From a bacterium (GTDB taxonomy: Bacteria > Patescibacteriota > Minisyncoccia > UBA6257 > GWB1-50-10), in NCBI GenBank assembly GCA_030647415.1, contig JAUSKB010000026.1, positions 74,894 through 138,893 of the forward strand: a DNA stretch of 64,000 nucleotides. Direction: 5' to 3'. A program made the translations under genes and the position numbers. This document shows positions 3,418 to 57,012 of the stretch, piece after piece. Within the stretch, counting starts at the first letter, position 1. Each line of letters starts with the position of its first letter. Below the pieces are notes generated by a model. That model was not told the origin of the DNA. It saw nothing but the letters and a program-made list of their open reading frames with translations, and searched no databases.

Positions 3418-3491
3418 TGGTCGGCCCGGCAGGAATCGGACCTACGTTCAATGTGTATAAGACATTTGCTCTACCATTGAGCTACGGGCCG
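3418..3491 (-). tRNA. tRNA-Ile (anticodon UAU), hand-folded
   Basis: Revcomp CGGCCCG TA GCTC AATGGTA GAGC A AATGT CTTATAC ACATT ... CGGGCCG A CCA: 7-bp acceptor, canonical D arm, 5-bp anticodon stem, loop CU-UAU-AC, CCA encoded. T-arm slightly atypical. Confidence 0.55.
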
Positions 3492-4144
3492 AATTTTTCC
3501 CGAACAGCTTTTAATCCCTGAAGTATCTTCTCAGCAACTCTAGCATTGCTTATTTTAATAGTACAGGTTCCATGGCCAAACGTGCCACGATTTATTGATT
3601 GTGAAGAATTTTTTTTGATATAGGGCTTCGTGAACTGCTCTCTCGGCAATTTAAGCGCGTGAGACCAATATGCTATCTCTGATTCTATATTCATATCACT
3701 GTAAAGATGCAGGTGTACGCGTATTTTTTCTTTCTCCAAATTAAGACAATGTGTTGTCCAATAGATAAAAAACTTCGGCACTGCAGGGTCGGTATTTGCA
3801 ACTTCCAGTTCCGAAACCCTCGTTTTTGAACCTTCTCCCCAGTAAAGGAAGAGTCCGGCTATGTACAAGTCTCTTTTCGAAAACGGGAAGATTTCATCTT
3901 TTTGAGACTCGTAAACTACTTGTAGCCGTAGTTCTTTTTTTCTAAACATCGTCTCACGGTATCGCTCAATACGAACTTCATTCCAATCGCGAAGAGCCCT
4001 GACCCGCTCCTTTGAGAGCGGGAGGCCACAAAGCCAGTAACTTAAGGTGCTTTTACTTACCCCTAGTTCTTTCTTGATCTGGCTATAGCTTTTTCCCTCT
4101 TTTCGCAAAGCTAATGCTCTCTGTTTGTCTTTTACTCGAGTCAT
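3482..4144 (-). CDS. HTH-domain protein with a degenerate LAGLIDADG-like motif (possible free-standing homing-endonuclease-like gene) in an AT-rich islet between two tRNAs
   Basis: 220 aa; N-terminal HTH (RKEGKSYSQIKKELGVSKSTLSYWL); motif DLYIAGLFLYWGEGSK resembles LAGLIDADG; local GC is clearly lower than surrounding genes. Confidence 0.35.
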   Translation of the reverse strand: MTRVKDKQRALALRKEGKSYSQIKKELGVSKSTLSYWLCGLPLSKERVRALRDWNEVRIERYRETMFRKKELRLQVVYESQKDEIFPFSKRDLYIAGLFLYWGEGSKTRVSELEVANTDPAVPKFFIYWTTHCLNLEKEKIRVHLHLYSDMNIESEIAYWSHALKLPREQFTKPYIKKNSSQSINRGTFGHGTCTIKISNARVAEKILQGLKAVREKFGP

Positions 4145-6369: not shown

Positions 6370-6852
6370 ATGCTGCCGAAATTCAAAAGTTCGCTCGGCC
6401 TCGACCTCGGCATCCCCGAAGTGGTCCGAGAGATTCTGACCTTCATGCGCGCCGACGCGCGCCGACGGTACACCGTCATCATCGGAAGCGATTCTCTCCT
6501 CCTCCCCTCGAAAAACGCTGACTTCGTGACTGCCATCGTGGTCCACCGCGTGGGGAACGGCGGCCGGTACTTCTGGCGCCGCACAGACCACGGGAAGTTT
6601 CACACGCTCCGCGACCGCATCATCCGCGAGGTGCTCCTGTCGCTCGAGGCGGCAGACCTCCTCCTGAAAGAGTTGCGCGATCAGGCGGGAGACATCGAGT
6701 GGAGCTTCGAAATCCACGCGGACGTGGGCGAGAATGGTCCTACAAAGGCGCTCATCCAGGAGGTGGTGGGCATGATCCGCGCCTCTAACTTCGAAGCAAG
6801 GACAAAGCCGCAGAGCTACGCGGCGTCAAAGGTGGCGGACCGGCACGTATAG
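6370..6852 (+). CDS. DUF458/YkuK-like predicted RNase H-like protein
   Basis: 160 aa; RRYTVIIGSDS...FVTAIVVHRVGNGGRYF resembles the YkuK family; 12-bp gap after the EEP gene suggests an operon. Confidence 0.45.
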   Translation: MLPKFKSSLGLDLGIPEVVREILTFMRADARRRYTVIIGSDSLLLPSKNADFVTAIVVHRVGNGGRYFWRRTDHGKFHTLRDRIIREVLLSLEAADLLLKELRDQAGDIEWSFEIHADVGENGPTKALIQEVVGMIRASNFEARTKPQSYAASKVADRHV

Positions 6853-6894
6853 TAATCGCGAATAATGCGAATCGGGGGAGGTAATAATGCGAAT
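6851..6894. repeat. Family B terminal repeat, left arm (AGTAATCGCGAATAATGCGAAT + GGTAATAATGCGAAT)
   Basis: Inverted partner at 7320-7362; contains GGAGG and the ATG of the GxxExxY gene. Confidence 0.85.
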
Positions 6895-7303
6895 GGGGAA
6901 CGAACCCGATACGAGTAGCGGAAACAAAGAGCTGATACTCCCGGAATTGAGCTACGCTATCATCGGCGCAGCGTTCACCGTATTCAACCATCTCGGTTGG
7001 GGATTTTCCGAGAAAGACTACGGAAATGCGCTTGCAATAGAGCTTCAAAAACAAACTATTAACTTCAAGCGAGAGGTGTATGTCCCGTTACGGTATGGAC
7101 CGGAAAATGTCGGCAGGTATTTTGCCGATTTCATCATCGAGGGAAAAATATTGGTTGAGTTGAAAGTTGTCCACAAATTAGGGTACACTCATGCGAAGCA
7201 GGTGCTAGGGTACCTCCGATCTGGGGGGTTCCGGCTCGGTCTGCTCATCTATTTTACGAACGGCGGGGTGAAATATCGCCGCATTCTGAACAGCGGCGTA
7301 TAA
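6887..7303 (+). CDS. GxxExxY protein (PD-(D/E)XK nuclease superfamily; 23S rRNA intervening-sequence-type protein)
   Basis: 138 aa; ELSYAIIGAAFTVFNHLGWGFSEKDYGNALAIEL is the family signature (GxxExxY); the alternative start at 6893 lies inside the repeat. Confidence 0.8.
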   Translation: MRMGNEPDTSSGNKELILPELSYAIIGAAFTVFNHLGWGFSEKDYGNALAIELQKQTINFKREVYVPLRYGPENVGRYFADFIIEGKILVELKVVHKLGYTHAKQVLGYLRSGGFRLGLLIYFTNGGVKYRRILNSGV

Positions 7304-7363: not shown

Positions 7364-7939
7364 ATGGCACACGACAAAATCGTATTCGACATAGAAACCA
7401 AGAACACCTTCGAGGATGTGGGTGGGCAGGCGAACATCACGAAGCTCGAGGCCTCCGTCATTGGCGTCTACTCCTACAACCGGGACCAGTACCGCGCCTT
7501 CGAGGAGCGAGAGTTTCCAGAGCTCGGCGAGTGGCTCCAGCAGGCGCACCTGCTCGTCGGCTTCTACAGCAAGAAGTTCGATGTGCCGGTCATGGAGAAG
7601 TATTTCTCCTTCAAGCTCGCCGCCATCCGGCACTTCGATATGCTGGAGGAAATCGAGAAGCGGCTCGGGCGCCGCATCGGCCTCGGCGTCCTCGCGGAGG
7701 CGAACCTCGGGGAGGGGAAGAGTGGCCACGGCCTCGAGGCAATCGACCTCTGGCGAAACGGCGAACTTGAGAAGCTCAAATCTTACTGCCTCCAGGATGT
7801 GAAAATCACAAGGGACCTCTACGAACGCATCCTCACGCAGAAATACCTCTGGATACCCGAGCGGAACGTGCCGCAGATGACGAAACTCGACTTCTCGGAC
7901 TATACTGAATCGAAGGCGCCACAGGCCGCCCTGCTATGA
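7364..7939 (+). CDS. DEDDy-type 3'-5' exonuclease (DnaQ-like fold)
   Basis: 191 aa; Exo I FDIET, Exo III YCLQDVKITRDLY; flanked on both sides by family B repeats. Confidence 0.65.
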   Translation: MAHDKIVFDIETKNTFEDVGGQANITKLEASVIGVYSYNRDQYRAFEEREFPELGEWLQQAHLLVGFYSKKFDVPVMEKYFSFKLAAIRHFDMLEEIEKRLGRRIGLGVLAEANLGEGKSGHGLEAIDLWRNGELEKLKSYCLQDVKITRDLYERILTQKYLWIPERNVPQMTKLDFSDYTESKAPQAALL

Positions 7940-8092
7940 GTAATCGCCAATAATGCGAATAGCACTCGGTAATAATGCGAATGAAAGGAGTAATCGCGAA
8001 TAATGCGAATGGCAGAGGTAATAATGCGAATGAAATGCGCATGTATTCGCATTATTACTGAATTTTAATTAGCATTATTAGCGACTACTCCA
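7939..8092. repeat. Family B repeat cluster without cargo (two forward 22+14 units, then reversed units), an 'empty' TIR pair
   Basis: AGTAATCGCCAATAATGCGAAT, GGTAATAATGCGAAT, AGTAATCGCGAATAATGCGAAT, GGTAATAATGCGAAT, then ATTCGCATTATTAC and ATTAGCATTATTAGCGACTACTCC abutting the ATG at 8092. Confidence 0.8.
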
Positions 8093-8346: not shown

Positions 8347-8477
8347 GGTGTGGGTGCGGTACTACCGCTCACTATCGAAGTCGGACTTCGATAATTGCGC
8401 TTTGAATTGCGCGAGGCAAGAGGCAACTATGGAGGTTCAACCTCGATAGTCTGGCATGGATGCTAGTCCTTTTCGTG

Positions 8478-8508
8478 ATTGACATTTATGCATAATTAGT
8501 GTTATCAT
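8478..8508 (+). promoter_or_regulatory. conserved promoter-like sequence ATTGACATTTATGCATAATTAGTGTTATCAT (TTGACA ... TGCATAAT / TATCAT)
   Basis: Near-identical copy (30 of 33 positions) at 20614-20644; both head low-GC islets. Confidence 0.5.
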
Positions 8509-8590
8509 TTCATCAGCAACGTCCACTAAGGGCGTGCTTCACAAAAAATCTTCGTGGCCCGAACGAAAGGGCTAACGAAAGGAGATTTAT

Positions 8591-18146: not shown

Positions 18147-18215
18147 GGAGTACGTGTGTGCCGAGATGGAGAAACAGTTCTATTAAAGCTGAAAATGAGG
18201 TACCATGCAATTAAT

Positions 18216-18316
18216 CCTGTTAGAAGTTTACATACACATAGGACTGGTTGTAGGCGTGTCGGTGCCAGCACTTCCCTGTGGATATCACAAGTGTGTGTGG
18301 GTAAACTTCTAACAGG
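18216..18316. repeat. Family A palindromic element, copy A3
   Basis: CCTGTTAGAAGTTTACATACACAT ... GTGTGTGGGTAAACTTCTAACAGG. Confidence 0.8.
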
Positions 18317-18376
18317 TCGTTCGACTCTGAGAGTCTCGGACTCGAAGAGATAAACCCGCCACATAAAACCTAACCA

Positions 18377-19706
18377 ATGTCCCACTTGCAACGACTTTCA
18401 CCAAGTATATTCCGCGCCTATGACATCCGCGGGGAGTACCCCCGTGAGGTAAACGCCTATGTGGTAGAGACCGTCGCGGCGGCAATTGGCAGCTTGTTCC
18501 CGCCGGGACCCATGATTGTCGCGCACGACGGCCGCACCAGCTCGCCGGCGCTCGCATTCGCGGTGCTTCGCGGGCTTGCCTCGGTCCGCTCGCGGGCAAG
18601 GCTCATTGACCTCGGCACTACCACGACGCCGATGTTCTATTTTTTTGTCGAGCGCCTAAAGGCCGCGGGCGGCATTATGGTGACCGCATCGCACAACCCG
18701 AAGACTATGAATGGCCTGAAGGTGGTCGGGGCGCACGCCGTTATGATTCCCGGTACTGAACTTGCGGCGTTGGTCCATAAAAAATCCCATGCTCAAAACG
18801 CGTAACTATGCAGGCGAGTATGCCTTGTTCCTCCGCACCTTTCTCGCTCCCGCCCGCCCGCTCCGGGTCGTCTTCGATTTCTCGAACGGTCCTGCGGGCA
18901 TAATCGTCCCCGACGTGGTCCGGAGCGAACCGAACCTCACCGCGTTTTTCGTTGACCGGGCGCTCTCGGGAAACTTCCCGGGACACGGACCAAACCCACT
19001 CGCCGGCGCCGGTCTCCTACACCTCCATACGGAGGTTCTTGCCCGGCACGCGAACCTGGGGCTCATCTTCGACGCGGACGGCGACCGGGTCTTCGTTGTG
19101 GACGAGCGTGGCCGGTGGGTGCCACCCCACCTCGTGGCACACCTCCTTGCGCGGAGGGCGGCAACGCCCTTCGTATTCGATACCCGGACGGCGCTCGCAC
19201 TCCGGTACGCGGGTCTTTTCGAACCCGCGGCGGCAATTCTCTCCCCAGTCGGCTCCGTCTACATAAAGGAACGGATGCGGGCGAGTGGGGCGGGGTTCGG
19301 CGCCGAGTATTCCGGCCACTACTACTTCAAGGAGTTTCTCTCCGTGGATTCGGGCATCCTCGCCGCCGTGAACGTCCTGAATGCCGTCTCCCGTCTTCCC
19401 TACTCGCTCGCGGAGTTCGTCGACCTTGCCCCCCGCGACGTCCGGTTCGAGGAGCGGAATATGCCCACGAAGAAGCCACGCGTCACCGTCGCTGCGCTCA
19501 CGAGCGCGCTCCGGCCGGGCGCGCGACGCGTCACGCCCGCCGCCCGGATGATAGGCGTCCAAGACGGCATGGTCATCGAGGCGGATGCATGGTTCGCCAC
19601 GGTCCGCCCCTCGAACACCGAGCCATTGGTCCGCGTCTGCGTCGGTAGCATCGAACCGCGCATCACCAAGGAAAAGCGCGTGGTGCTCGCTGCGTTTTCG
19701 GTATAG
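18377..19706 (+). CDS. phosphomannomutase/phosphoglucomutase, interrupted by a +1 frameshift at an A6 run (ORFs 18377-18805 and 18762-19706); possible pseudogene or sequencing error
   Basis: N-terminal part carries the active-site loop TASHNP; C-terminal part matches PGM/PMM domains III-IV; 142+314 aa equals a normal PMM length; the frames meet at CATAAAAAATCC (18776-18787). Confidence 0.65.
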
Positions 19707-20407: not shown

Positions 20408-20420
20408 GAAAAAGATTCAC

Positions 20421-20523
20421 CCTGTTAGAAGTTTACAGACACTCATTGAGTGTGTAGTGTAGCGTGTTATCTAAAACAACATGTGTAACATGAACACAGC
20501 GTGCGCGTAAACTTCTAACAGGG
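20421..20523. repeat. Family A palindromic element, copy A4, with conserved outer flanks TAAGAAAAAGATTCACCCTG... and ...CAGGGTGAAAGAAAAAGGAGGG
   Basis: The same outer flanks occur at copy A6. Confidence 0.85.
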
Positions 20524-20613
20524 TGAAAGAAAAAGGAGGGGAGGAGGGTTTAAAAAATGAGATATAAATGATGGAGATACTAGAAACCAGCATATATGCT
20601 GGTGTTTTTTACT

Positions 20614-20644
20614 ATTGACATTTATGTATAATTGGTGTTAACAT
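20614..20644 (+). promoter_or_regulatory. conserved promoter-like sequence ATTGACATTTATGTATAATTGGTGTTAACAT (second copy)
   Basis: Preceded by hairpin ACCAGCATATATGCTGGT plus T-run; heads the second low-GC islet. Confidence 0.5.
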
Positions 20645-20693
20645 ATAACCAGCGTTTTAGAATAAATCGTTCAAAAAACTAAAGGAGGCTGTA

Positions 20694-24490: not shown

Positions 24491-24934
24491 ATGCTATTCC
24501 GCACCACATGGAGAGCCTACCTGCGACGCATTCGAGCATCGAGCGACGCCACAAAGCGGCGATGGATTGCCGTCGTGGGATTGGGCTCGGGAGGACTCGT
24601 CATCGCCCTCTGGGTCATCTACCTCTCCTCCACGCTGCCCGCCCGACTGGACAGTCGTTCGGGCGGGCCCACCCGGACGAATACGCCTCCGCTCGCGACC
24701 ACAACGGCGTCTGAATCGCCCCAGGAGCGAAGGGGGGATGTGTTTACGAACGGCGTCCGAGGCATCCGGGATATGATGGCAAAACAATGGCAGGGCGCAC
24801 GAAACACTATCGACAGTTCCTGGCAATCGCTGGGGGCGCTTATCACCGAGGGAAACGAATTCTCGGTGACGGGAACCACCACGCCCGCTTTGCCGGAATC
24901 GAGTGAGTCGAGCGAGCCACCGCACACACCATGA
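24491..24934 (+). CDS. hypothetical membrane protein
   Basis: 147 aa with one TM helix; overlaps the gyrA start by 4 nt. Confidence 0.4.
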
Positions 24935-27876
24935 CCACTGCAGAACCAAAGAAAACGCCCGGCGGCTCCATCGAGCCCCGCGAGATTGTGGACGAGCTCC
25001 GGCAGTCCTACCTATCGTACGCCATGTCGGTTATCGTCTCGCGCGCCATCCCGGACGTCCGTGACGGCTTGAAACCGGTGCAACGGCGCATCCTCTGGGC
25101 GATGTGGGACACCGGACTCACCCACAGCGCGAAGTTCAAAAAGTCCGCGAATGTGGTCGGCGAGGTGCTCGGCAAGTACCACCCGCACGGCGACGTTGCG
25201 GTCTACGACACCATGGCGCGTATGGCGCAGGACTTCTCGCTCCGCGCACCGCTCGTCGACGGCCAGGGAAATTGGGGGTGTTTTACTAAAGATACAAAAG
25301 TAAAACTCGCCGACGGTCGAAACGCGAGCTTTAGTGAACTCGTAGAAGAACACCGCCAGGGCAAGAAAAACTATACCTTTGCCGTTAATTCGGCTGGGCT
25401 CATTTCCATCGCGGAAATAAAAAATCCGCGCCTCACAAAAAAGAATGCAGAGCTCGTCAGGGTGATTTTGGACAATGGCGAGAAGATTCGTTGCACGCCG
25501 AATCACCGCTTTATGTTAAAAGACGGCTCCTACAAAGAGGCACACTACCTCACAAACGGGAATAGTCTTATGCCCCTATACGAGAAGTTGTCCACAAAAG
25601 AGGGCCGATTAAACAGCGACCCACGCCCGGTTTTATATGAACTAAATAAAAACCATAAAGTTGTTAGGGTTGAAAAGTTAGCGGAGCAGGAGGATGTTTA
25701 TGATTTAACGATTGATAAATATCATAATTTTGCGCTCGCGGCTGGTGTCTTTGTGCACAATTCGATCGACGGCGACAGCCCGGCGGCAATGCGTTATACT
25801 GAGGCTAGGCTTACAAAAGTCGCCGAGGAGCTCTTGACGGACATCGAGAAGGAGACGGTCGACTGGGGACCAAACTACGACAACTCCCGCGTGGAGCCGC
25901 TCGTCCTGCCGGGGAAGCTCCCGAACCTCATTGTGAACGGCGCGGTCGGCATCGCGGTCGGTATGGCAACCTCCATCCCGCCGCACAACCTCGGCGAGGT
26001 TATAGACGCCATCGCGTACCTTGCCGAGCACGGGGATGCCACGATTGAGGAGCTTATGCAGTTCATCCCGGGTCCCGACTTCCCGACGGGCGGCGTAATC
26101 TACGACACGCGGGCGATCGCCGAAGCCTACCGGACCGGCCGCGGCGCCATCGTCATGCGCGCCGTCGCCGTCATCGAGGAGCGGACGGCGCGAGGGCACC
26201 AGATCGTCGTCACCGAAATTCCCTACCAGGTGAACAAGTCGGACCTCGTCACCTCCATCGCCGAGCTCGTCACGGAGAAGCGAGTGGAGGGCATCCGGGA
26301 CCTCCGCGACGAATCCGATCGCGATGGCCTGCGAATCGTCATCGAGCTGAAAAGCGACGCGGCGCCGCAAAAGATTTTAAATCAGCTCTACAAGTACACC
26401 GAGCTCCAGAAGAGTTTCCACTCAAACCTCCTCGCATTGACCGGCGGACTCCAGCCGGAGGTGCTCTCCCTGAAGGATATCCTCGCCGCATACCTCGACC
26501 ACCGGAAGCTGGTCGTGAAGCGGCGAACAGAGTTTGACCTCCGAAAGGCGACGGAGCGGGCACATATCCTCGAGGGGCTCGTGAAAGCCTTGGACCACAT
26601 CGACCGGATCATCGAGACCATCAAGAAGTCCAAGGACCGCGAGGATGCCCAGCGGAACCTCATCGCGAAGTTCAAGTTCTCGGAGCTCCAGGCGAACGCC
26701 ATCCTCGAAATGAAGCTCGCCGCGCTCGCGGCGCTCGAACGCAAAAAGCTCGAAGATGAACTTACGGAAAAGCGGAATATCATCGAGGAGCTCACTGCGC
26801 TCCTCAAGAACCCGAAGAAGATGCTGGGGCTCATCGTCACGGAGCTCGGCAATCTCAAGGCCGCCTTCCCGAGCGAGCGGCGCACGAAGGTGGTTCCGCA
26901 CGGGCTCACGGAGTTCCGCGAGGAGGACCTGGTGCCGCAGGAGGAGGCAATCGTCACGCTCTCGGTGGACGGCTACATCAAACGGATGCCGCCCGATACC
27001 TTCCGGGCGCAACGGCGCGGCGGGAAGGGGCTCATCGGGTTCGATTTGAAGGACGAGGACCATATCCGACAGCTCATGGCGGCACGAACCCACGATAACT
27101 GCCTCTTTTTCACGGACCGGGGGAAGGTTTTCCAGACCAAGGTGTTCGAGATACCCGCCGCGGAGCGGGCGGCTAAAGGCAAACTCGTGCACAACTTCCT
27201 CGAAGTCCCACCGAACGAGCATATCACGGCGATGGTCGCCTACGGCGGATCGTCGAGCGGGTACCTCACCATGGTGACGCAGGGCGGAACCATCAAGAAA
27301 ACGCCGCTCAAGGACTTTGTGAGCGTCCGGCGGACGGGCATTATCGCCCTCAGGCTCCAGCCGAACGACATTCTTGAGTGGGCCCAGCTCTCCTCCGGCG
27401 GCGACGAGATGCTCCTCGTGACCTCCGCCGGTCAGGCGATCCGGTTCCGTGAAAAGGATGTCCGTCCAATGAGCCGCACCGCGGGCGGCACGCGCGCAAT
27501 CCGCCTGAAGCGAAAGGACCAGGTCGCCGGCGTCGGCATCATACCCAAGGAGGCCGGCGCCGCCGACCGGAAGGGGCTCCGCGTGGTCGCCGTCATGGCC
27601 CGCGGGTTCGCGAAGCAGACGCCGCTCTCGGATTACAAGGTACAGCACCGCGGCGGCGGCGGCATCAAGACCGCGAAGGTGACGGAGAAAACAGGGCCGG
27701 TGATCGCCGCGGCGATCGTCGGACCGGAGACGGAGGTTGTGCTCGCCTTCTCGAAAAAAGGCCAGGCATTGAAAACACCGCTCTCGAACGTCCGCATCGC
27801 GGGTCGCGCGACACAGGGCGTCCGCATTATGAACGTCGAGGCGGATGATGCGCTGATTGGGGTACTCTGTCTGTAG
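24931..27876 (+). CDS. gyrA: DNA gyrase subunit A, containing a mini-intein
   Basis: 981 aa; conserved GyrA blocks ([15 protein letters not shown]-terminal beta-pinwheel repeats); 161-aa insertion between GNWG and SIDGD. Confidence 0.95.
25279..25761 (+). mobile_element. mini-intein (161 aa, no homing-endonuclease domain) within gyrA
   Basis: Begins Cys ([13 protein letters not shown], block A), TPNH block B, ends VFVHN followed by Ser+1; DNA is markedly AT-rich relative to the flanking gyrA sequence. Confidence 0.8.
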
Positions 27877-27918
27877 GTAACAAACAACCTACGACACACA
27901 ACTAACAACCTATTTATC

Positions 27919-28019
27919 CTGTTAGAAGTTTACAAATAATCATTTTCCTATGAATTTGATGGTTATATTCAAAACCAAAACTATGCAGGAATACAAATTT
28001 TGCGTAAACTTCTAACAGG
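27919..28019. repeat. Family A palindromic element, copy A5; the right end CTAACAGG is immediately followed by the ATG at 28020
   Basis: CCTGTTAGAAGTTTACAAATAAT ... TTGCGTAAACTTCTAACAGG-ATGAACCTC. Confidence 0.85.
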
Positions 28020-29324
28020 ATGAACCTCACAAAGAAACAGCTCATCATCCTCGGCGGTATCGTCCTTGTAGTCATCATTCTGGTGCTCATGGGGCTCGGT
28101 ATCATCCCGGGACTGAAGACTGGCCCGGTCACCATGAAACCGGTTTCGCTCACCGTATGGGGCGTAGAGGACGCCGTACAGGAGCTGCAACCCGCGGTGC
28201 AATCGTTCGCCAGGAACCACCCCGGTGCCACCGTCACCTACTGGCAGTTTACCGACACCGAGACGTACCACACCACCCTCCTCGAGGCGCTCGCCGCGGG
28301 CACGGGACCGGATATCTTCGCCATACGGAACACCGAGGTGATGCGCCATGCCTCGAAGCTCGTCGCAATGCCGAAAGAGCGGCTCTCGCTCCTCACTCTC
28401 CGAAACACGTTCGCCCCCGTGGTGGAGCGTGATTTTGTGGTAAACGGCGGGGTCGTTGCGCTGCCGCTTTCCATAGACACGCTCTCACTCATCTATAATC
28501 GGGACCACTTCAACGAGGCGGGCATCGTTTCTGCTCCCGCCACCTGGGACGACCTCGTCGCCATTGCGCCGCGGCTTTCGGTCGTTGACGACTCGCGCCG
28601 GGTCACTCGCGCTTCCATAGCGCTTGGCGGTTCGGGTAGTACCATACCGCGCGTCAGCGACATTATTTCGGCATTGATGCTTCAGGGTGGCATCGTACCC
28701 GTCGGGCCCGACTGGGGCGGCGCCGGTTTCGCAACCCGCGCAGGATATGACGCGGTGAACTTCTACCTGCAGTTTTCGAACACCGGAAGCCCGCTCTACA
28801 CCTGGAATGAGGGGATGCCGAATGCTGTGGATGCGTTCGCACAAGGACGGGTCGCTATGATTATCGACTACGCCCGCGCACTGCCGGACATCCGGGAGCG
28901 AAACCCGCTCATGAACTTCGCCGTCGCACCACTCCCCCAGCAGAAGGGGGCGGAGCGGTCAAAGACCATGGCCTCCTACTGGGGCTATACGGTTTCCCGC
29001 CAATCGAAGCAGGCCCGGCTCGCGTGGGACTTCATCGTGGAAACAGCAACGAACCCGCAGGTGGTCAGTGCATACTTGAATGCTTCAAAACGCCCGCCGG
29101 CGATACCGAAATTCATCGAAGCGTACCGCGACAATCCCAACCTCGCCGTATTCGCCCAGCAAACGCTCACCGCCGATTCCTGGCCGATGCCGAACCGGGA
29201 CCTGGTAGGGGGCATATTCTCCGACATGGTGACGACGGTGCTTGAGAATCGGGCGAGCGTCGAAACGGCCGTAGGCCGCGCGCAGAGCGATATTTCGCGA
29301 CTCATCGGGTCGCGGCCGCGGTAA
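28020..29324 (+). CDS. extracellular solute-binding protein (ABC transporter, family 1), membrane-anchored
   Basis: 434 aa; N-terminal TM anchor, SBP_bac_1-like fold; starts MNL, identical first 9 nt to the gene at 54068. Confidence 0.65.
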   Translation: MNLTKKQLIILGGIVLVVIILVLMGLGIIPGLKTGPVTMKPVSLTVWGVEDAVQELQPAVQSFARNHPGATVTYWQFTDTETYHTTLLEALAAGTGPDIFAIRNTEVMRHASKLVAMPKERLSLLTLRNTFAPVVERDFVVNGGVVALPLSIDTLSLIYNRDHFNEAGIVSAPATWDDLVAIAPRLSVVDDSRRVTRASIALGGSGSTIPRVSDIISALMLQGGIVPVGPDWGGAGFATRAGYDAVNFYLQFSNTGSPLYTWNEGMPNAVDAFAQGRVAMIIDYARALPDIRERNPLMNFAVAPLPQQKGAERSKTMASYWGYTVSRQSKQARLAWDFIVETATNPQVVSAYLNASKRPPAIPKFIEAYRDNPNLAVFAQQTLTADSWPMPNRDLVGGIFSDMVTTVLENRASVETAVGRAQSDISRLIGSRPR

Positions 29325-32141: not shown

Positions 32142-32154
32142 GAAAAAGGATTTA

Positions 32155-32255
32155 CCCTGTTAGAGTTTTACAAACACTTTAGTTATATGCATTTGGTTGG
32201 TACCGCATACCACCGGTATCAAGCATAGTAGTGTGCGTGTAAAACTCTAACAGGG
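32155..32255. repeat. Family A palindromic element, copy A6
   Basis: TAAGAAAAAGGATTTACCCTGTTAGAGTTTTACAAACAC ... GTGTGCGTGTAAAACTCTAACAGGGTAAAAGAAAAAGGAGGG. Confidence 0.85.
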
Positions 32256-32277
32256 TAAAAGAAAAAGGAGGGATTTA

Positions 32278-32379
32278 CCCTGTTAGAAATTTACATACAC
32301 CCATACCACATGATGTCGTCTGTCTCCTGAAACTGCACCGTATTCATGAATACGGTGTGCGTGTAAATTTCTAATAGGG
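32278..32379. repeat. Family A palindromic element, copy A7 (tandem with A6)
   Basis: CCCTGTTAGAAATTTACATACAC ... GTGTGCGTGTAAATTTCTAATAGGG. Confidence 0.85.
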
Positions 32380-32446
32380 AAGCAAAAGCCCCGCTCTGGT
32401 TTTCCAGAAACGGGGCTACAACTTTGCCTGCTTCAGCACAAGATAC

Positions 32447-34404: not shown

Positions 34405-34715
34405 AGTGGCCTCCTTTCATTTTTGTGATTATTGAGTTGTGTATATTCTGGCGCAATTATAGCAGTTTTGTATAAAATTGTCAAATGCGCCGGTTTGTGG
34501 TGCAATCACTGGAGCAAGGCCCCCTTCGTACCTGCATTTCTAGCCTCTGGGCGGTAGGGGGCGCCGGATACCCCTGGCGTACTCCGTTTCACACCCGTAC
34601 CCCGTTCGCCGCCAATCAACCCGGCGACCCCACCCTAGTTCGTTTCCCACCTCCGCCGTCCGCCGCACCCGCCCCCGCCATGCAGTCAGCCTATTCCCGC
34701 GGCGTGCGTTTCAGT

Positions 34716-34758
34716 TGCTAAAATAACTCGACGGCCGTTCTGTTATTTTAGCAGTACT
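34716..34758. repeat. hairpin repeat GTTGCTAAAATAAC-TCGACGGCCGTTC-TGTTATTTTAGCAG (copy 1)
   Basis: 11-bp stem; an inverted-orientation copy lies at 35468-35515; the pair flanks the Cas2-like gene. Confidence 0.75.
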
Positions 34759-34836: not shown

Positions 34837-35463
34837 CTAGACAAGACTCCGGAGTGTGCCGCGTTCGGTCACTGAAAAAATCTGGATGTGTGGAATAAGC
34901 CCAAGTTCGGCCACGTTATCAAGGAGCACCTGCGGGATGACCACTTTCCCGACAAAAACACTCTGCTGCACCTTATGAAAACCGAGCTGTATGAGCACCG
35001 CCCGAAGCCAGTCACGCTTCCGGCGCTCCCGTTCCGGAACATCGAATGCGACGATAACAACCTTCTTCGATGGCTCCCCACGGTACCGGTCCGGGGCATA
35101 GGAAACGGCGAGATTACTACGAAACTCAACCAAACGCTCGAGGCCAAATTTGGTGAGTATGAGCTTCGCCGCGCCGCCGGAAACACGGGTTTCGGCGACA
35201 AGCCCCGTCTTTTTGAGGTGGGTGAGCATACTCCAGTACCGTTGCCACTCGCGGCTCGATTCTTTCGCGAGTTCGCGGTCTCTGACAAGCTCTCCGCGAA
35301 CCCGCTCGAACGATCCGCGCGATGCGCCGCAGGGGAGCACGAGCATCGCGATGCCGAGGTCCATGACACTTAATGCCGCGCCTTCGAGCGCTTCAAGGAT
35401 CGCCTTTGTCTTTGCACCACGCACCACCCGCTGTTCCGGCACTCTTTTCTTCTTTGGCGCCAT
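34837..35463 (-). CDS. winged-HTH + Cas2-like (VapD/Cas2-fold) domain protein
   Basis: 208 aa; the C-terminal VVIVAFDVPERERRKRDWLRAVLIQLGFHKVQQSVFVGKV matches the Cas2 core pattern (YDV..RRLRKV....G.RVQ.SVF); there is no cas1 and no array. Confidence 0.45.
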   Translation of the reverse strand: MAPKKKRVPEQRVVRGAKTKAILEALEGAALSVMDLGIAMLVLPCGASRGSFERVRGELVRDRELAKESSREWQRYWSMLTHLKKTGLVAETRVSGGAAKLILTKFGLERLVEFRSNLAVSYAPDRYRGEPSKKVVIVAFDVPERERRKRDWLRAVLIQLGFHKVQQSVFVGKVVIPQVLLDNVAELGLIPHIQIFSVTERGTLRSLV

Positions 35464-35467
35464 CTTC

Positions 35468-35515
35468 TTAGTATACTCCGCTGCTAAAATTATCCAACGG
35501 CCGTTCGGTTATTTT
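35468..35515. repeat. hairpin repeat GCTGCTAAAATTATCCAACGGCCGTTCGGTTATTTTAGCAAC (copy 2, inverted relative to copy 1)
   Basis: Near-exact reverse complement of the repeat at 34716-34758. Confidence 0.75.
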
Positions 35516-35707
35516 AGCAACTGTCATACTCACCCCTCCGTGTGGTTTCGCGGAGTGTGTATGTAGTGTGCGGCCTCGTGCACCCGGCGCGGTGGTTTCC
35601 GCTTTGACCACAGGGTATGCTGAACTTCAGGCGATACAATGCCCGAGTGGTGAAACTAGCATTCACCCCGCGTCATTTCTACGCTAGACTAATTGTGTAT
35701 AAAGGGG

Positions 35708-37820: not shown

Positions 37821-37994
37821 CTACCGCGCATGGAACATCTCATGCACCTCGCGGAGCTCCTTGTTCGTCAGGTGTGTATACACCTGTATGGTCGTGAGGA
37901 ATCGTCCGCAGTTCTCCCGCGTCATCGCCGAGCGGTTTTTCTCGATCTCTAGGTAGTCGAGGTGTTCCCTTACGAGCCGTTCCGTCTCGGTCAT
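37821..37994 (-). pseudogene. tyrosine recombinase (XerC/XerD-type integrase) remnant, 57 aa, internally deleted
   Basis: Hand translation gives MTETERLVREHLDYLEIEKNRSAMTRENCGRFLTTIQVYTHLTNKELREVHEMFHAR: N-terminal core-binding-like start fused to the C-terminal catalytic-Tyr motif TTIQVYTHL; shorter than 60 aa, so absent from the ORF track. Confidence 0.4.
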
Positions 37995-38006
37995 ACCACT
38001 ACTTTA

Positions 38007-38107
38007 CCCTGTAAGAGTTTTACATACACGCTTTCATTTTGAACATCTATTGCCCTGTAATACGAATGGAACACAGTGAATGGCGTGCTGGTAAAACCCT
38101 AACAAGG
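38007..38107. repeat. Family A palindromic element, degenerate copy A8
   Basis: CCCTGTAAGAGTTTTACATACAC ... GGTAAAACCCTAACAAGG; the left end lies 12 nt from the integrase-remnant start. Confidence 0.7.
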
Positions 38108-38197
38108 TGAGCTACAGTATTGCGCAACACGTCGTTTTCCAGTTTCTGAGCTATTTTTGACATTTTTGGGGTTCCTTGGTACCATGAAAACAATCGT

Positions 38198-41282: not shown

Positions 41283-41295
41283 GCAATGGTGTATA

Positions 41296-41506
41296 CCCTG
41301 TTAGAGTTTTACAAATACACCTGTACAAGCTGAATTATTTGTCACCTCATACCAAGCTGTGCACAACCCAACGGCGTGCCCCGTGAGAGATTTACGCGCA
41401 AACTACTTGCTGGGAAATGGTTTTGTTATAATCAGTAAGTGAAATTCGATACTAGGAAATGGTCTGTAAATCTCTAACGGGGCGTGCAAGTAAAACTCTA
41501 ACAGGG
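41296..41506. repeat. Family A palindromic element, copy A9 (outer, 211 bp), carrying a nested copy
   Basis: Left CCCTGTTAGAGTTTTACAAATACAC at 41296; right GCAAGTAAAACTCTAACAGGGT at 41487-41506. Confidence 0.75.
41389..41482. repeat. Family A variant copy A10, nested inside A9
   Basis: CCCCGTGAGAGATTTACG ... TGTAAATCTCTAACGGGG. Confidence 0.7.
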
Positions 41507-41519
41507 TAAACTTAAGTAT

Positions 41520-45770: not shown

Positions 45771-45895
45771 TACACAAATGTCTAACAGGGTACACCCTGT
45801 TAGAGTTTTGCACATACTCCGTTATATTCCATATGGATGTTTCAGAAAGACCAATTTCTTCTAGTAAAAAGATGATCTGCAAAACTCTAACAGGG
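45771..45895. repeat. Family A palindromic element, copy A11, plus an extra solo right-half immediately upstream
   Basis: CACAAATGTCTAACAGGGT-ACACCCTGTTAGAGTTTTGCACA ... TGCAAAACTCTAACAGGGTAA-ATG (ksgA start). Confidence 0.8.
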
Positions 45896-45898
45896 TAA

Positions 45899-46708
45899 AT
45901 GCGAGCACGAATCGGACAGCATTTTCTGAAAGACGCGAGTGTTGCTCGGCGTATTGTCTGCGCGCTCCCCATCGCCGAGCACGCGACAGTTATTGAGGTC
46001 GGGCCGGGGAAGGGCGCGCTTACCGCATTCCTCGCGGAGCGCGTGGGGGAGGTTCCCGAGGCGGAGCTCGTCTGTATTGAACGAGACCCTGCCCTTGCGG
46101 CGGCGCTTGCCGCTCAATCCCAATCGTGGCGAGGTGTGCTGCCCACCGTACACACCGGCGACGTGCGCACACTCCTCCGCGAGGTCGTCCGGAGCGTTCC
46201 CCGGACGCGGCGGTACGCCATCATCGGGAATCTGCCGTACTACCTCACGGGGCACCTCTTCCGAATCCTCGGCGAGCTGCCGCGCCTGCCTGAGGCGGCG
46301 GTCTTCATGGTGCAGCGGGAGGTCGCGGAGCGGCTTGCCGCCGTGCCGCCGTGCATGAACATGCTTGCGGCGAGCGTGCAGGCGTGGGCGAAACCCTCCA
46401 TCCTATTCCGTGTGCCACCATCCGCATTCTCGCCGAAACCGAGCGTGGAAAGCGCGGTGGTGTCGCTTGTCGCGGTAAGAACCACCCCGCCACCTGCAGA
46501 ATACTATCGGGCCGCCCGGACACTCTTTCGGCAACCACGGAAAACAATTTTGAATAACCTTGCGGCTGAAATCGGGCGCACGGACGCCGTGCGCATCCTC
46601 ACCGAAGCGGGGCTCAACCCATCGGACCGTCCGCAGACACTTTCACCGGACAAGATTCTTTTGCTATCAAAACACCCGCCGTTCACCGAAGCGGCGGGTG
46701 ATGTTTGA
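45899..46708 (+). CDS. rsmA: 16S rRNA (adenine1518/1519-N6)-dimethyltransferase RsmA/KsgA
   Basis: GQHFL and VIEVGPGKGALT motifs. Confidence 0.85.
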   Translation: MRARIGQHFLKDASVARRIVCALPIAEHATVIEVGPGKGALTAFLAERVGEVPEAELVCIERDPALAAALAAQSQSWRGVLPTVHTGDVRTLLREVVRSVPRTRRYAIIGNLPYYLTGHLFRILGELPRLPEAAVFMVQREVAERLAAVPPCMNMLAASVQAWAKPSILFRVPPSAFSPKPSVESAVVSLVAVRTTPPPAEYYRAARTLFRQPRKTILNNLAAEIGRTDAVRILTEAGLNPSDRPQTLSPDKILLLSKHPPFTEAAGDV

Positions 46709-53883: not shown

Positions 53884-53967
53884 TCTAATCTCAACAAGCA
53901 GAGGCAAGCTGAGGCCGAGCGGCAGCGGAAAGCCGGTGGAGCAACACCAAATCCATAACCCATTTAT

Positions 53968-54067
53968 CCTGTTAGAAGTTTACAGATAGTTATTTATATG
54001 GAAAATATTATTGTTATGCAAAATAAAATTGTGAAGTGGCGGTGTTTGCGCGTAAACTTCTAACAGG
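53968..54067. repeat. Family A palindromic element, copy A12; the right end is followed directly by the ATG at 54068
   Basis: CCTGTTAGAAGTTTACAGATAG ... TTGCGCGTAAACTTCTAACAGG-ATGAACCTC. Confidence 0.85.
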
Positions 54068-55072
54068 ATGAACCTCTCGAATATAACTTTTGAGCTGCTC
54101 TCCGAACGGTACGAGGAGATACCGGAACGGTTTCGGGAGCTCCTCGAGTCACCCGGCACAAAAACAACACTCGTGCGCATCGGGGCGCAACACGCGCTTG
54201 ACCACGAACGGCAAACACTCCTTGAGGCGCTGGTCGGTCTTGTCTTCACCGGTTTCCTCTCCCCGGATGACCTCGCGGGGGAGTTTGTCGACCGCCTCTT
54301 CCTGAACTTCGTCCACGCCCGCGCGCTCGCCCGCGAGGTGGACGAGACCTTCTTCGCGCCGCACCGCCGCGACCTCGTTCGCGTCTACAACCCCGTGGGC
54401 GGGGTACCGCAGGGCCCAACCGTCCGGAGTGCGGAACGACCTATGATTGGATTGCCTTCACAAGTAGGAAAGACGATTTCACTTGAATCCATCGGCGCTT
54501 CAGGCGGTAGGGAACAAAAGCTTCCCATTAACGAGGTTGCGGCGCCGCTCGTGATTCTCGGCTCCAGCTCCCCCACCCTCCGCAAACCGATTATTCCGAA
54601 CCGCCCGCCGGAACGCCTGTTTGCCAGCCAGGCAGGCCTGCCTACCCATCCGACCGAGTTATCCGGGCGAGCCGGACAAACGGTTTCGGAGAAGCCGGTG
54701 TACCACTCACCCTTTTCCTTCCGGTTCCCGTTCCGCTCACCGCAGGCGGCGCGTACCCCGCTGGGCGACTCCACGGGACCGACCGCGACCGTCCGATTGC
54801 CCGGCAGTGCGGCACCAGCGCAGAAGAAGGATGGGCTTCATATTGTCCACTATGCGGAAACACGCGGGAGACTCGGCCCGCCGCTATCAACCGGAAAGGG
54901 GGGGGTAGTGAACCTGGACCAGCTGGGGGCGCAGCAAAGAAAAGAGACAAGAGAAAAAGGACAAGAGACGCCCATCGCACCGACAACCGACAACCGACAA
55001 CCGACAACCATCCCGAAACCACAGCCGAAGATCGATGGGAACACCATAGACCTCCGGGCAAATAAACTCTAA
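54068..55072 (+). CDS. hypothetical Pro-rich protein containing an in-frame variant of the 28-bp repeat
   Basis: 334 aa; starts MNL, identical 5' end to the 28020 gene; PTHPTELSGRAGQT is encoded by the repeat at 54641-54672. Confidence 0.5.
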   Translation: MNLSNITFELLSERYEEIPERFRELLESPGTKTTLVRIGAQHALDHERQTLLEALVGLVFTGFLSPDDLAGEFVDRLFLNFVHARALAREVDETFFAPHRRDLVRVYNPVGGVPQGPTVRSAERPMIGLPSQVGKTISLESIGASGGREQKLPINEVAAPLVILGSSSPTLRKPIIPNRPPERLFASQAGLPTHPTELSGRAGQTVSEKPVYHSPFSFRFPFRSPQAARTPLGDSTGPTATVRLPGSAAPAQKKDGLHIVHYAETRGRLGPPLSTGKGGVVNLDQLGAQQRKETREKGQETPIAPTTDNRQPTTIPKPQPKIDGNTIDLRANKL

Positions 55073-55125
55073 ATCCGAAACTCTAAATCCTAAACAAGCA
55101 CGAAATTCTAAACTCTAAACCACTG
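55066..55125. repeat. Family C repeat (CTCTAAATCCGAAAC(C/T)CTAAATCCTAAACAA...), forward arm C1
   Basis: Inverted partner at 55516-55580; together they bracket the four-helix-bundle gene. Confidence 0.8.
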
Positions 55126-55129
55126 CATT

Positions 55130-55495
55130 ATGGAACCGAGCGTGGGCTTGAAACGGTATGATTTGGAGGCGCGAACGCTTCAATTTACAAGGGATGTCAT
55201 TTCGTTCGTTTCCGCCCTTCCCCGGAGTATTGCCAATATTGAAATCATCAAACAGCTCATCCGGGCGACTGGTTCGGTGGGAGCGAATTATATAGAAGCG
55301 AATGAGTCCGTAAGCAGAAAGGACTTTCTCTTACGAGTTAAGATTTCCAAAAAAGAGTCGCGAGAGGCAATATACTGGTTGGAGCTCGTACAATGCTCAA
55401 ATGAGCAATGTGAAGTTAGGAGGCGTGAATTGATCCGAGAAGCGACCGAGCTCATGAAAATTCTCGGTTCAATCGTCGAAAAATCATCTCGGTGA
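55130..55495 (+). CDS. four-helix-bundle protein (TIGR02436 / 23S rRNA intervening-sequence protein; Avd-like)
   Basis: 121 aa; RATGSVGANYIEANESVSRKDFLLRVKISKKESREAIYWLEL matches the family core; lower GC than neighbours. Confidence 0.7.
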   Translation: MEPSVGLKRYDLEARTLQFTRDVISFVSALPRSIANIEIIKQLIRATGSVGANYIEANESVSRKDFLLRVKISKKESREAIYWLELVQCSNEQCEVRRRELIREATELMKILGSIVEKSSR

Positions 55496-55515
55496 TATTG
55501 CATTCATGATTTTTC

Positions 55516-55580
55516 CCTGTTTCGGATTTGAGATTTGGAATTTGTTTAGGGTTTAGGGTTTCGAATTTAGAATTTATCTG
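55516..55580. repeat. Family C repeat, reverse arm C2 (GTTTAGGGTTTAGGGTTTCGAATTTAGAATTT)
   Basis: Reverse complement of the C1 motifs. Confidence 0.8.
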
Positions 55581-55581
55581 T

Positions 55582-56079
55582 ATGAATTTTCAGGTCCCCC
55601 AATTCATCTCGGAAAAGGCCCACATCATCGGGCCGCTCACCTTCGCCCAGCTCGGCTACCTCATGGGCGCGGGCTTTATCGCGTTCCTTTTCTTCTCATT
55701 TTTCACGCCGTTCGTCGCGGGCTCGTTTTCTGCGGTGTTTGTCGGGGTCGCGCTCGCGCTCGCGCTCGGAAAGTTCAATGGGGTGAGTATTGCATCCATC
55801 CTTGTCGGCGCGGTCGGGTACCTCTGGAAGCCACGGGTGTACACCTGGCAACGGACATTTGCCACACAGACCTTTGACGCCTCAAGCGTAGATAAAATAG
55901 AGGCGATGCGGCGGAAGATGGGCGTCGAGGAAAAACTCAAGGCGATTGCGCTTTCGGTCACCACCGGAAAGATCTTCGCGCCAAAGGCGCCGGAGGTCGC
56001 CGCTGATGCCCAGCGATTCCAAATGGTGAGCTACCTGACCGGTGAAAAGAAGCTCGCGAAGAGAATCGACTACAGGTAG
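55582..56079 (+). CDS. small membrane protein, possibly VirB3-like (by position upstream of virB4)
   Basis: 166 aa from the internal ATG; 2-3 TM helices; matches the VirB3-VirB4 gene order. Confidence 0.3.
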   Translation: MNFQVPQFISEKAHIIGPLTFAQLGYLMGAGFIAFLFFSFFTPFVAGSFSAVFVGVALALALGKFNGVSIASILVGAVGYLWKPRVYTWQRTFATQTFDASSVDKIEAMRRKMGVEEKLKAIALSVTTGKIFAPKAPEVAADAQRFQMVSYLTGEKKLAKRIDYR

Positions 56080-56089
56080 AATAAGGTAA

Positions 56090-56228
56090 GCTCTAAATCC
56101 GAAACCCTAAATCCTAAACAAATTCGAAATTCCAAACACACTCATAAATGATGATGAAACATGATGCCATTTCGAATTTCGTGCTTGGAATTTGTTTAGA
56201 GTTTCGATATTAGGATTTAGAATTTCTA
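56090..56228. repeat. Family C palindromic element C3 (forward and reverse arms, no cargo)
   Basis: GCTCTAAATCCGAAACCCTAAATCCTAAACAAATTCGAAATTCCAA ... TTGGAATTTGTTTAGAGTTTCGATATTAGGATTTAGAATTTC. Confidence 0.8.
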
Positions 56229-56893
56229 TGGAAAAGGGTCTCCCCACACAATCATTTGTCGCCGTCAAAGAGGTTCGAAACGGCATCGTCCACCTGAAAG
56301 ACGGCGGCCTGCGCCAGCTCCTCATCGTCTCCGGCGTGAACTTCGACCTGAAGGCGGAGGAGGAGCAGGCACTTATTCTGAACACCTTCCAAAATTTCCT
56401 GAACACGCTCGACTTCACGATGCAGTGCTTCATCCATTCCCGGAAGGTGAATGTGGACACCTACCTGGACCGCATGCGCTCGCGGCAGCTCGAGGAACCG
56501 AATGAGCTCTTGAAGATCCAGATTGCCGAGTATATCGACTTCATCGCCGCGTTCGTGGACCAGAACGCCATCATATCAAAAACCTTCTTTGTGGTGGTCC
56601 CGTACGATCCGCCAGTGACGTCCGGAGCGGCGACCAAGGGCGTGCTTGGCTTCTTCAAGAAACGCGAGGCGGCGACGGTCATCGCGGACGAGGCGGCAAC
56701 GCTCCAGGAGCACTTGAAGCAGCTCGAACAGCGGGTGACACAGGCGACCGAGGGCCTCCTCCAGATCGGGCTACGGGCAGTCCGGCTCCGCGACGACGAG
56801 ACCATCGAGTTGTTCTACAACCTCTACAATCCGGAACTGGTCGAGAAGAAGGGGCTCGACATAGCAAAGCCAGACAAAGCCGGAAAATCCTAA
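56228..56893 (+). CDS. virB4: VirB4/ConE-family ATPase, N-terminal fragment (split gene)
   Basis: 222 aa; IVHLKDGGLRQLLIVSGVNFDLKAEEEQALILNTFQNFLNTLDFTMQ fits the CagE/TrbE/VirB4 N-terminal domain pattern; 222+587 aa equals a normal VirB4 length. Confidence 0.5.
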   Translation: MEKGLPTQSFVAVKEVRNGIVHLKDGGLRQLLIVSGVNFDLKAEEEQALILNTFQNFLNTLDFTMQCFIHSRKVNVDTYLDRMRSRQLEEPNELLKIQIAEYIDFIAAFVDQNAIISKTFFVVVPYDPPVTSGAATKGVLGFFKKREAATVIADEAATLQEHLKQLEQRVTQATEGLLQIGLRAVRLRDDETIELFYNLYNPELVEKKGLDIAKPDKAGKS

Positions 56894-57012
56894 GCACGAA
56901 ACCCTAAATCCTAAACAAACCCGAATGTTCCAAATCCGAAACGGTGCGCATGCGTTTGTGGTTTCGTGCTTCGATATTGTTTCGGATTTCGATATTAGAA
57001 TTTAGGATTTCT
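56893..57012. repeat. Family C palindromic element C4, lying between the two virB4 fragments
   Basis: AGCACGAAACCCTAAATCCTAAACAAACCCGAATGTTCCAAATCCGAAAC ... GTTTCGTGCTTCGATATTGTTTCGGATTTCGATATTAGAATTTAGGATTTCT. Confidence 0.8.

Follow-up and report, generated by a model that had tools for sequence, protein, structure and literature searches.

Does a short repeat that ends exactly at a start codon supply that codon, or has it come to lie against a start that the gene already possessed? The question is raised by a locus in a 64,000-nt stretch of Patescibacteria DNA (contig JAUSKB010000026.1, positions 74,894 to 138,893 of the forward strand; the whole stretch is referred to as the window), where the gene of an ABC-type solute-binding protein (SBP; SBP_bac_1/8, 28020-29324, plus strand, N-terminus MNLTKKQL) adjoins a copy of an inverted repeat named family A. 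With its flanking hexamers this copy occupies 27912-28025. Its 102-nt core (27918-28019) has perfect 16-nt arms and runs from CCTGTTAGAAGTTTAC to GTAAACTTCTAACAGG, directly followed by ATGAACCTC; the hexamers are ATTTAT (27912-27917) on the left and ATGAAC (28020-28025) on the right, the latter being the start codon and second codon of the SBP gene. A reading made from the letters of this DNA alone (the sequence-only reading) had proposed that the element either donates translation starts to adjacent genes or targets gene 5' ends, and that its arms, if transcribed, would sequester the start codon in a stem, suggesting riboregulation. Comparison with related genomes indicates instead that family A is mobile and that the start codons which it abuts are those of the genes.

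Family A was confirmed as a real repeat family, and its abutment on start codons is equally real. Scanning both strands of the window for the arm motif GTAAACTTCTAACAGG with up to 3 mismatches returned 22 matches, against 0.13 expected from shuffled sequence, and these were always paired and inverted, 97-102 nt apart. The copies are bounded by perfect 16-nt inverted arms (CCTGTTAGAnnTTTAC...GTAAAnnTCTAACAGG), number 12-13 in the 64 kb and are all intergenic; a looser scan added a degenerate copy (60616-60715), a nested copy (41380-41481) and a solo arm (45774-45789). A paired-arm search of metagenome contigs yielded 14 further loci, with contigs in Ga0209211, SRR13727527 and SRR22387853, additional arms were found in loci retrieved later, and the relatives are annotated as Jorgensenbacteria or Patescibacteria. 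The same paired-arm pattern found nothing in viral contigs, and the 16-nt arm alone gave only single chance matches in unrelated taxa when compared with a genome collection. Over the 28 complete copies of the window and the metagenome loci, core length is 99.9 +/- 1.7 nt (cores of 97-105 nt) and the arm pair is perfectly complementary in 21. Central interiors are unrelated among most of these copies (median pairwise identity 0.56 vs 0.54 when shuffled), clearly related interiors being confined to four copy pairs. Arm variants at positions 9-11 read AAG, AGT, AAA or AGA, with TTTAC or TTTGC as a further difference, and the variant type is matched between the two arms of one copy. In 29 copies, two pair types are seen at arm position 10 and three at position 11, and unpaired cells number 0-1; 24 arm columns are invariant, so that the arm sequence itself is conserved beyond pairing.

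The mobility of family A is shown by filled and empty sites, by a nested insertion and by presence/absence differences between related genomes. The metagenome locus L131 is syntenic with window positions 55582-56061 (86% identity) and holds a copy that the window lacks: TCTGT-ATGAAT-TTTCAGG in the window, with an empty target site ATGAAT at 55582-55587 (plus strand), corresponds to TCTGT-ATGAAT-(element)-ATGAAT-TTTCAAG in L131, the duplicated hexamer being the start and second codons of a PrgI-like gene. The degenerate copy (60610-60721 with its flanks, core 60616-60715) lies between the direct repeats ATGCGT and ATGCGC, which duplicate the start and codon 2 of the gene at 60716-61927, and in L129 an element has ATTCAT on both sides, the reverse complement of the gatA start ATGAAT (minus strand). 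The duplicated hexamer thus equals the start codon plus the next codon in three independent insertions. In a composite element at 41291-41511, the outer copy (41297-41505) contains the inner copy (41380-41481) between GCGTGC duplications at 41374-41379 and 41482-41487, and removal of the inner copy with one hexamer leaves a 101-nt element. Other direct repeats are GCGTGC/GCGTGT in L142 and GTAAAC, twice, in L126; tandem arrays have the palindromic hexamer GTATAC in common. The copy in the gyrA-SBP spacer is missing at the syntenic sites of L130, L134, L135, L136 and L138, and L130 has an element array past the SBP stop codon, where the window has none. Because a filled/empty site, a nested insertion and direct repeats are all at hand, insertion with a 6-bp duplication is demonstrated. 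The idea that the arms bracket native DNA was rejected, as it is the entire 100 nt that was inserted in L131 and in the nested copy. Separately, the interior of copy 27918 (27934-28003) aligns weakly with the L130 spacer at 701-733 (25 of 33 identical, p ~0.02 by shuffling), which is probably a chance match in AT-rich sequence. Duplications outside the 22-nt repeat were also considered; the sole candidates were the AAGAAAAAGG group (20421, 32156, L125), whose flank repeats are not clearly duplications because the same sequence recurs in the group.

Read outward from the tips, the flanking bases follow R-T-R-A-A-(Y), with RTRAAY exact at 30 of the 56 tips and a window background of 0.18% per position. 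The motif includes ATGAAY and GTGAAY, and because the tips read in this way, an ATG or GTG after CAGG forms part of a conserved tip hexamer; past position +6 the flanks hold no signal, with neither a second half-site nor arm similarity beyond the hexamer. Family A is short and non-coding, with terminal inverted repeats, a filled/empty duplication, dispersed copies and between-genome polymorphism, all of which characterise MITEs (miniature inverted-repeat transposable elements), and it probably consists of non-autonomous, MITE-like mobile elements in a Jorgensenbacteria-like Patescibacteria metagenome-assembled genome (MAG). Insertion would begin with a 6-bp staggered cut in the target, made by a transposase that would be supplied in trans, and would duplicate the hexamer. 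ATGAAY and GTGAAY are among the hexamers preferred next to the tip, and the duplication would remake the hexamer beside the downstream DNA, so that insertion exactly at a start codon would leave the reading frame intact. Spacers, and places at which the duplication makes the gene whole again, such as the first six bases of an open reading frame (ORF), would be the only sites to tolerate a 106-bp insertion, and start-codon insertions would survive in a compact genome because the duplication restores the frame. Two unrelated genes, both natively beginning Met-Asn-Leu, would hence come to have 27 nt in common together with the element.

Eight copies lie 0-15 nt from a start codon. The right tip touches the start at 28020 and 54068 (both CAGG/ATG) and, in the degenerate copy, at 60716 (CGGG/ATG). 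It lies 4 nt from the ksgA start at 45899 (CAGG-GTAA-ATG), 14 nt from the start at 41520, beside the composite element, and 15 nt from the yraN (UPF0102) ATG at 1067. The sequence-only reading had listed five of these right ends (28020, 54068, 45899, 60716 and 1067), and each was found as described on the sequence; the sixth, at 41520, had escaped it, and the gap at 1067 is one nucleotide shorter than the 16 nt that it gave. It had also rightly noted left ends near the minus-strand starts of holA (ATG at 810, TIGR01128, E 4.5e-19) and of an integrase remnant, for which the distance in both cases is 13 nt rather than 11-12. The remnant is a Xer-like ORF of 57 aa (37821-37994, minus strand, ATG at 37994; XerD C-terminus, E 4e-4); this ORF fuses the two ends of a XerC/XerD-like recombinase, N-terminus to C-terminus (the catalytic Tyr region), and looks like an integrase with an internal deletion. 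The stretch held in common by the loci at 28020 and 54068 is identical, as had been claimed, and spans 27 nt (GC, GTAAACTTCTAACAGG and ATGAACCTC) instead of 26; GTGAACC does occur at the equivalent place of a further copy, 824-923, which reads CAGG-GTGAACC. The called starts are backed by Pfam alignments, which begin at residue 2 for KsgA, residue 11 for YraN, residue 3 for the single-stranded DNA-binding protein SSB of L124 and residue 5 for the PrgI-like protein of the window, and orthologue N-termini agree with them.

How far this placement exceeds expectation was estimated from the tolerated sites. The window is ~85-90% coding with very short spacers, and ~8 of its 56 genes start with ATGAAY. 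By rough estimate, ~10% of the RTRAAY sites at which an insertion would be tolerated are start codons, and 3 of the 12 copies in the window lie on one; this enrichment is only about two-fold, so that active targeting of start codons is not demonstrated. The proposal that the element targets gene 5' ends finds support in one specific form, through the RTRAAY tips and the three start-codon duplications: apparent targeting is best read as preference for the motif combined with survival of harmless insertions. In a stronger version, insertion may occur at +1 of leaderless genes. Some sequences past the tips recur in their own right. The relA/spoT, pheS and Nramp genes start exactly 16 nt past an arm tip (L118 1773-1788, L119 1614-1629 and L127 224-239, respectively), and a similar GTAAACTGAnTATCnT-ATG precedes all three of these unrelated starts. 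Another extension, GTRAAAGAAAAAGGAGGG, resembling a Shine-Dalgarno (SD) sequence, follows several tips (window 20523-20540 and 32255-32272; L125 28-45 and 385-401); in L125 it stands 3 nt before an ATG-initiated ORF and in the window no real gene comes after it. This extension may act as a ribosome-binding site that is portable, or SD regions may be favoured as targets.

The origin of the start codons was assessed on element-free alleles. The SBP gene lies downstream of gyrA in many relatives, and its start is at the same aligned position in all element-free syntenic loci compared, which have no arm either. L130 (83% aa identity) begins ATGCAA CTT (MQL), L134 ATGCAC CTC (MHL) and L135 ATGGCG (MAL); L136 and L137 begin GTGAAC TTA (MNL), and L138 ATGAAT TTG (MNL). 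MNL is the commonest N-terminus of the SBP family, found in 21 of 120 orthologues. For the gene at 54068, the element-free L133 and L140 start with ATGGAC and the element-free L139 with ATGAAC, while in the L132 orthologue an element with an unrelated interior again adjoins ATGAACCTC. As judged from these alignments, the start codons and Met-Asn-Leu are native to the genes and do not stem from the repeat. The claim that the element donates translation starts thus fails, since element-free orthologues keep the start in place, and so does the derivation of MNL from the element: MNL occurs in orthologues from unrelated upstream DNA, the observation that the sequence-only reading had itself named as speaking against it. 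It is very unlikely that the element supplies the ATG, alone or with the first codons, and that the N-termini derive from it, despite several features which that view would explain. ATGAAC lies within an extended inverted repeat (left TTTAT-CCTG, right CAGG-ATGAA); codon 2 is CAA, CAC or GCG in the nearest element-free SBP orthologues and AAC in the element-bearing allele; in the 54068 family it is AAC in element-bearing alleles and GAC in two element-free ones; and the outward extensions at the relA/spoT, pheS and Nramp genes end at ATG. Against this stand the constant start position in every element-free orthologue, the routes to MNL through GTGAAC-TTA or ATGAAT-TTG in genomes without any arm, the ATGAAC start of L139 and the empty window site, which already reads ATGAAT. 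The codon-2 changes are single-nucleotide differences and are equally explained by an element that needs ATGAAC as its target; the most that the element could have imposed is AAC as codon 2.

A role of the arms in RNA was considered next to the question of how the abutted genes are expressed. Folding predicts a perfect stem of 19-21 bp that includes the A-U-G in copies 27918, 53968 and 60616 (z -3.5 to -9), which bears out the expectation that the arms would sequester the start codon if the whole element were transcribed. A cis-acting RNA hairpin, whether riboregulator or insulator, might then maintain the arms through AUG sequestration or as an RNase III site, and the covariation at arm positions 10 and 11 would agree with this, as would copy 18216, in which both arms are changed, with compensation, relative to L127 and L121. 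Such covariation is, however, also expected for inverted repeats that act at the DNA level, and the remaining evidence makes the RNA account quite unlikely: the arm sequence itself is conserved over its 24 invariant columns; length is held to +/- 1.7 nt despite a random loop, as DNA looping or circularisation would need and an RNA hairpin would not; copies occur in convergent spacers, nested and in tandem arrays; target duplications are present; housekeeping genes such as ssb, gatA and ksgA would be shut off, not regulated, by a perfect ~20-bp stem covering their AUG; and a gathering-threshold Rfam search of the window returned two tRNAs and no family matching the elements. Riboregulation is at present unsupported.

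Transcripts may instead start from a promoter within the arm. In the element-free L130 and L134, TGnTATACT is followed after 6 nt by the ATG of the SBP gene, a geometry (TGnTATACT-N6-ATG) typical of leaderless mRNAs, and this promoter is absent from the window. Since the native extended -10 has been lost at 28020, either the element or read-through would have to drive expression there. Each arm carries TAAACT, AAAACT or TAAATT, a -10-like TAAAnT, 8-9 nt from its tip, and in copies with an ATG 13-16 nt away the tip hexamer plus one base remakes TAAACT 6-9 nt before the ATG. A scan with the sigma-70 consensus found no systematic outward match at the arms, and promoter-like sites did not exceed those in shuffled sequence. 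An outward -10 in the arm is plausible from its sequence, and we infer that the abutted genes would be expressed from this TAAAnT and not by way of the hairpin; for any one transcript the two scenarios, arm promoter and hairpin by read-through, are mutually exclusive. The missing SD sequence at element-abutted genes is not unusual, because a recognisable one precedes only ~15 of 56 window genes.

Several observations weigh against the assignment of family A to MITE-like elements. Direct-repeat flanks are not general: most copies have inverted hexamers, both tips reading RTRAAY outward (~45 tips against 3 with RTTYAY), mainly in copies with the arm variants AAG and AGT, an arrangement that cannot come from a simple 6-bp duplication. 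Unrelated interiors are atypical for a recently amplified bacterial MITE; covariation at arm positions 10 and 11 is not required by a transposase that binds each end separately; the start-codon enrichment is no more than the rough two-fold given above; and neither the window nor the 25 fetched loci (L118-L142) yielded a transposase, an autonomous partner or a cognate insertion sequence (IS) sharing the terminal repeats. The enzyme search covered ~50 window ORFs with Pfam and NCBIfam, together with inspection of the ORFs of L118-L133, and matched only the Xer remnant and a weak helix-turn-helix (HTH) ORF at 3482-4144. Decayed or hairpin-corrected duplications were rejected as a source of the inverted hexamers, because they predict equal numbers of RTRAAY and RTTYAY and because the flanks show 3-4 differences beside difference-free arms. 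Instead, the flanks may be reset one by one through one-ended rearrangements, for example by deletions next to an element or by copies recombining with each other. Left of copy 27918, ~50 nt of native spacer are gone, and with them the promoter-like TGnTATACT and a hairpin's right arm; on one side of copy 18216, synteny with L127 and L121 is interrupted; and a truncated element is butted against the SBP stop codon in L130. Alternatively, the hexamers may be carried with the element, as in elements of the Tn916 or Tn554 type.

This last possibility leads to a different enzyme. A tyrosine-type recombinase might move the element through a ~106-bp circle in which the arms, as inverted binding sites, flank a 6-bp overlap. 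Arm-6 nt-arm junctions are indeed present, three times in L130 (CAGG-GTATAC-CCTG) and once in the window (45774-45811), and core plus hexamer measures 105.9 +/- 1.7 bp, which corresponds to ~10 helical turns. Fixed length with random interior points to limits on how the arms can meet on double-stranded DNA, for which helical phasing may be the reason. Two orthologous sites (copy 18216 vs L127/L121, and 54068 vs L132) have a conserved flank with differing arms or interior, a pattern suggestive of in-place replacement or conversion; the searched ORFs yielded no DDE transposase, and the Xer-like remnant starts 13 nt from copy 38008. Set against these, the flanks show no second half-site, the 57-aa remnant lies outside the element and is the one trace of a recombinase, and the clean duplications at the non-consensus GCGTGC and ATGCGY are those that a staggered transposase cut gives, so that a recombinase circle is unlikely. 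That the hexamers are coupling sequences carried from a donor site and not true duplications would fit GTTTAC on the same side in L118, L119 and L126 with a differing second hexamer; coupling predicts RTRAAY and RTTYAY to be equally common, however, against the ~45 to 3 observed, and this part, too, has little probability. Two extensions of the recombinase account have similarly poor prospects: that family A, rather than a decaying MITE, is an actively exchanging ~106-bp cassette of one hexamer and a 100-bp core which lands with its carried hexamers at +1 or ATG as a portable promoter for leaderless genes, and that arms, spacing and tip hexamer alone are maintained, the outward -10 (TAAAnT-N8/9-ATG) replacing the native promoter. 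An identity as a RAYT-mobilised REPIN or an integron attC-like site is highly improbable. Two conserved inverted arms ~100 nt apart, a variable centre and hairpin potential would suit either, and the arm motifs GTTAGAA and TTCTAAC resemble the attC boxes GTTRRRY and RYYYAAC. The defining features were looked for and are lacking: the arms are neither self-complementary nor palindromic REP hairpins, the box order GTTAGAA...TTCTAAC is the opposite of RYYYAAC...GTTRRRY, target duplications are present, no Y1/RAYT or IntI gene was found in the searched ORFs, and the neighbours are housekeeping genes (gyrA, ksgA, ftsK, holA) and not cassettes.

With non-autonomous MITE-like elements retained as the probable identity, the closest comparison is with the Correia elements (CREE) of Neisseria. 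Like these, family A comprises multi-copy, intergenic, non-coding elements of ~100-150 bp with terminal inverted repeats, often just 5' of genes, with long hairpin potential and with filled and empty sites between related genomes. Unlike CREE, it duplicates 6 bp, in a minority of copies, rather than TA; its interiors are mostly unrelated while arms and length (100 +/- 2) are held and the arms covary; and it has no known parent IS and resides in a Patescibacteria MAG. Tn916 and Tn554 are tyrosine-recombinase transposons with 6-bp coupling sequences. Their flanking hexamers, as in family A, are not always duplicated and seem partly heritable, and the arm-hexamer-arm joined form in arrays is a further likeness; family A differs in being only 100 bp long, in having no associated recombinase gene and in its two-tip RTRAAY bias, which such elements do not predict. 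Correia elements carry outward promoters, and the Neisseria REP2 and Borrelia IR repeats lie immediately upstream at the translation start and contain promoter, ribosome-binding site and ATG (PMC3184786). Family A resembles REP2 and IR in its position immediately upstream of genes and differs from them in that its ATG is native according to element-free orthologues and its arm promoter is inferred; a start codon that is borne by the repeat and absent from repeat-free alleles was not found. No description of MITEs from the Candidate Phyla Radiation came to light in a full-text search of the literature.

The other window copies are as follows, with flanks included in the outer coordinates. The copy at 53962-54073 (core 53968-54067, 100 nt; hexamers ATTTAT/ATGAAC) adjoins the ATG of a 334-aa gene (54068-55072). 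That at 818-929 (core 824-923, GTTTAC/GTGAAC) has its left tip 13 nt from the holA start, and the next, at 949-1057 (core 955-1051, TTTCAT/ATAAAC), is the one that precedes yraN. The copy at 18210-18322 (core 18216-18316) lies in the divergent spacer between ftsK and a phosphoglucomutase gene, with the non-consensus flanks ATTAAT and TCGTTC. To its right, TCGTTCGACTC/TGAGAGTCTCGGACTCGAAGAG (18317-18376) is kept in L127 and L121, where it is split by a 62-nt insert; this sequence could be a small structured RNA or another insertion. The phosphoglucomutase-family gene is itself split, perhaps by a frameshift or because it is a pseudogene, into two ORFs that overlap (18377-18805 and 18762-19706). 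The copy at 20415-20528 (core 20421-20522) begins 13 nt past the stop of a Metallophos-family phosphoesterase gene and is followed by the SD-like extension GTGAAAGAAAAAGGAGGG. Two adjacent copies at 32150-32384 (cores 32156-32254 and 32279-32378) occupy a convergent spacer with GTAAAAGAAAAAGGAGGGATTTAC between them. A decaying copy at 38002-38112 (core 38008-38106) has 3 arm mismatches, and its left tip is the one beside the Xer-like remnant. At 45774-45900, a solo arm (45774-45789) and the hexamer GTACAC precede a copy (core 45796-45894) whose right hexamer, GTAAAT, is overlapped by the ksgA ATG at 45899.

Further features of the window concern its genes and other repeats. The gyrA gene (24931-27876) contains an intein, and a tRNA-Ile(tat) is present. 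Between the latter and a tRNA-Val lies ORF 3482-4144 (minus strand), which is low in GC (~41-47%); its N-terminal HTH is weakly like those of IS21 and IS630 transposases and the ORF may have been left behind by another mobile element. A second repeat family, TAAACTCTAAATCCGAAAC... with the inverse ...GTTTCGAATTTAGAATTTA (55063-57015, especially 55068-55560), brackets ~500 nt with ORF 55130-55495, a segment that is missing from the syntenic L131, and these repeats recur at 56087-56230 and 56884-57015 among PrgI and type IV secretion system (T4SS)-like genes. AGTAATCGCGAATAATGCGAATG repeats (6851-6895 and 7939-8033) bracket a PD-(D/E)XK nuclease ORF (6887-7303) and an RNase H-like exonuclease ORF (7364-7939). 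Inverted repeats of 43 nt (34712-34754 and 35481-35523, 84% complementary) bracket a Cas2/PaaX_M-like ORF (34837-35463), and a 64-nt promoter-like repeat with TTGACA (8454-8517 and 20590-20653, 77% identical) stands upstream of two different genes.

The tempting conclusion that the common ATGAACCTC was donated by the element is hereby corrected. Family A probably joins a known kind, the MITE-like elements, with unusual traits in its unrelated interiors, fixed length, covarying arms and two flank classes, the first three of interest to specialists in mobile DNA. It provides a concrete case of a small mobile element persisting in a streamlined genome with almost no spare DNA, and persistence would come from landing on hexamers, start codons among them, at which duplication of the target restores the reading frame. 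Element-abutted loci such as 28020 would make good test cases for promoter capture and leaderless initiation in Patescibacteria.

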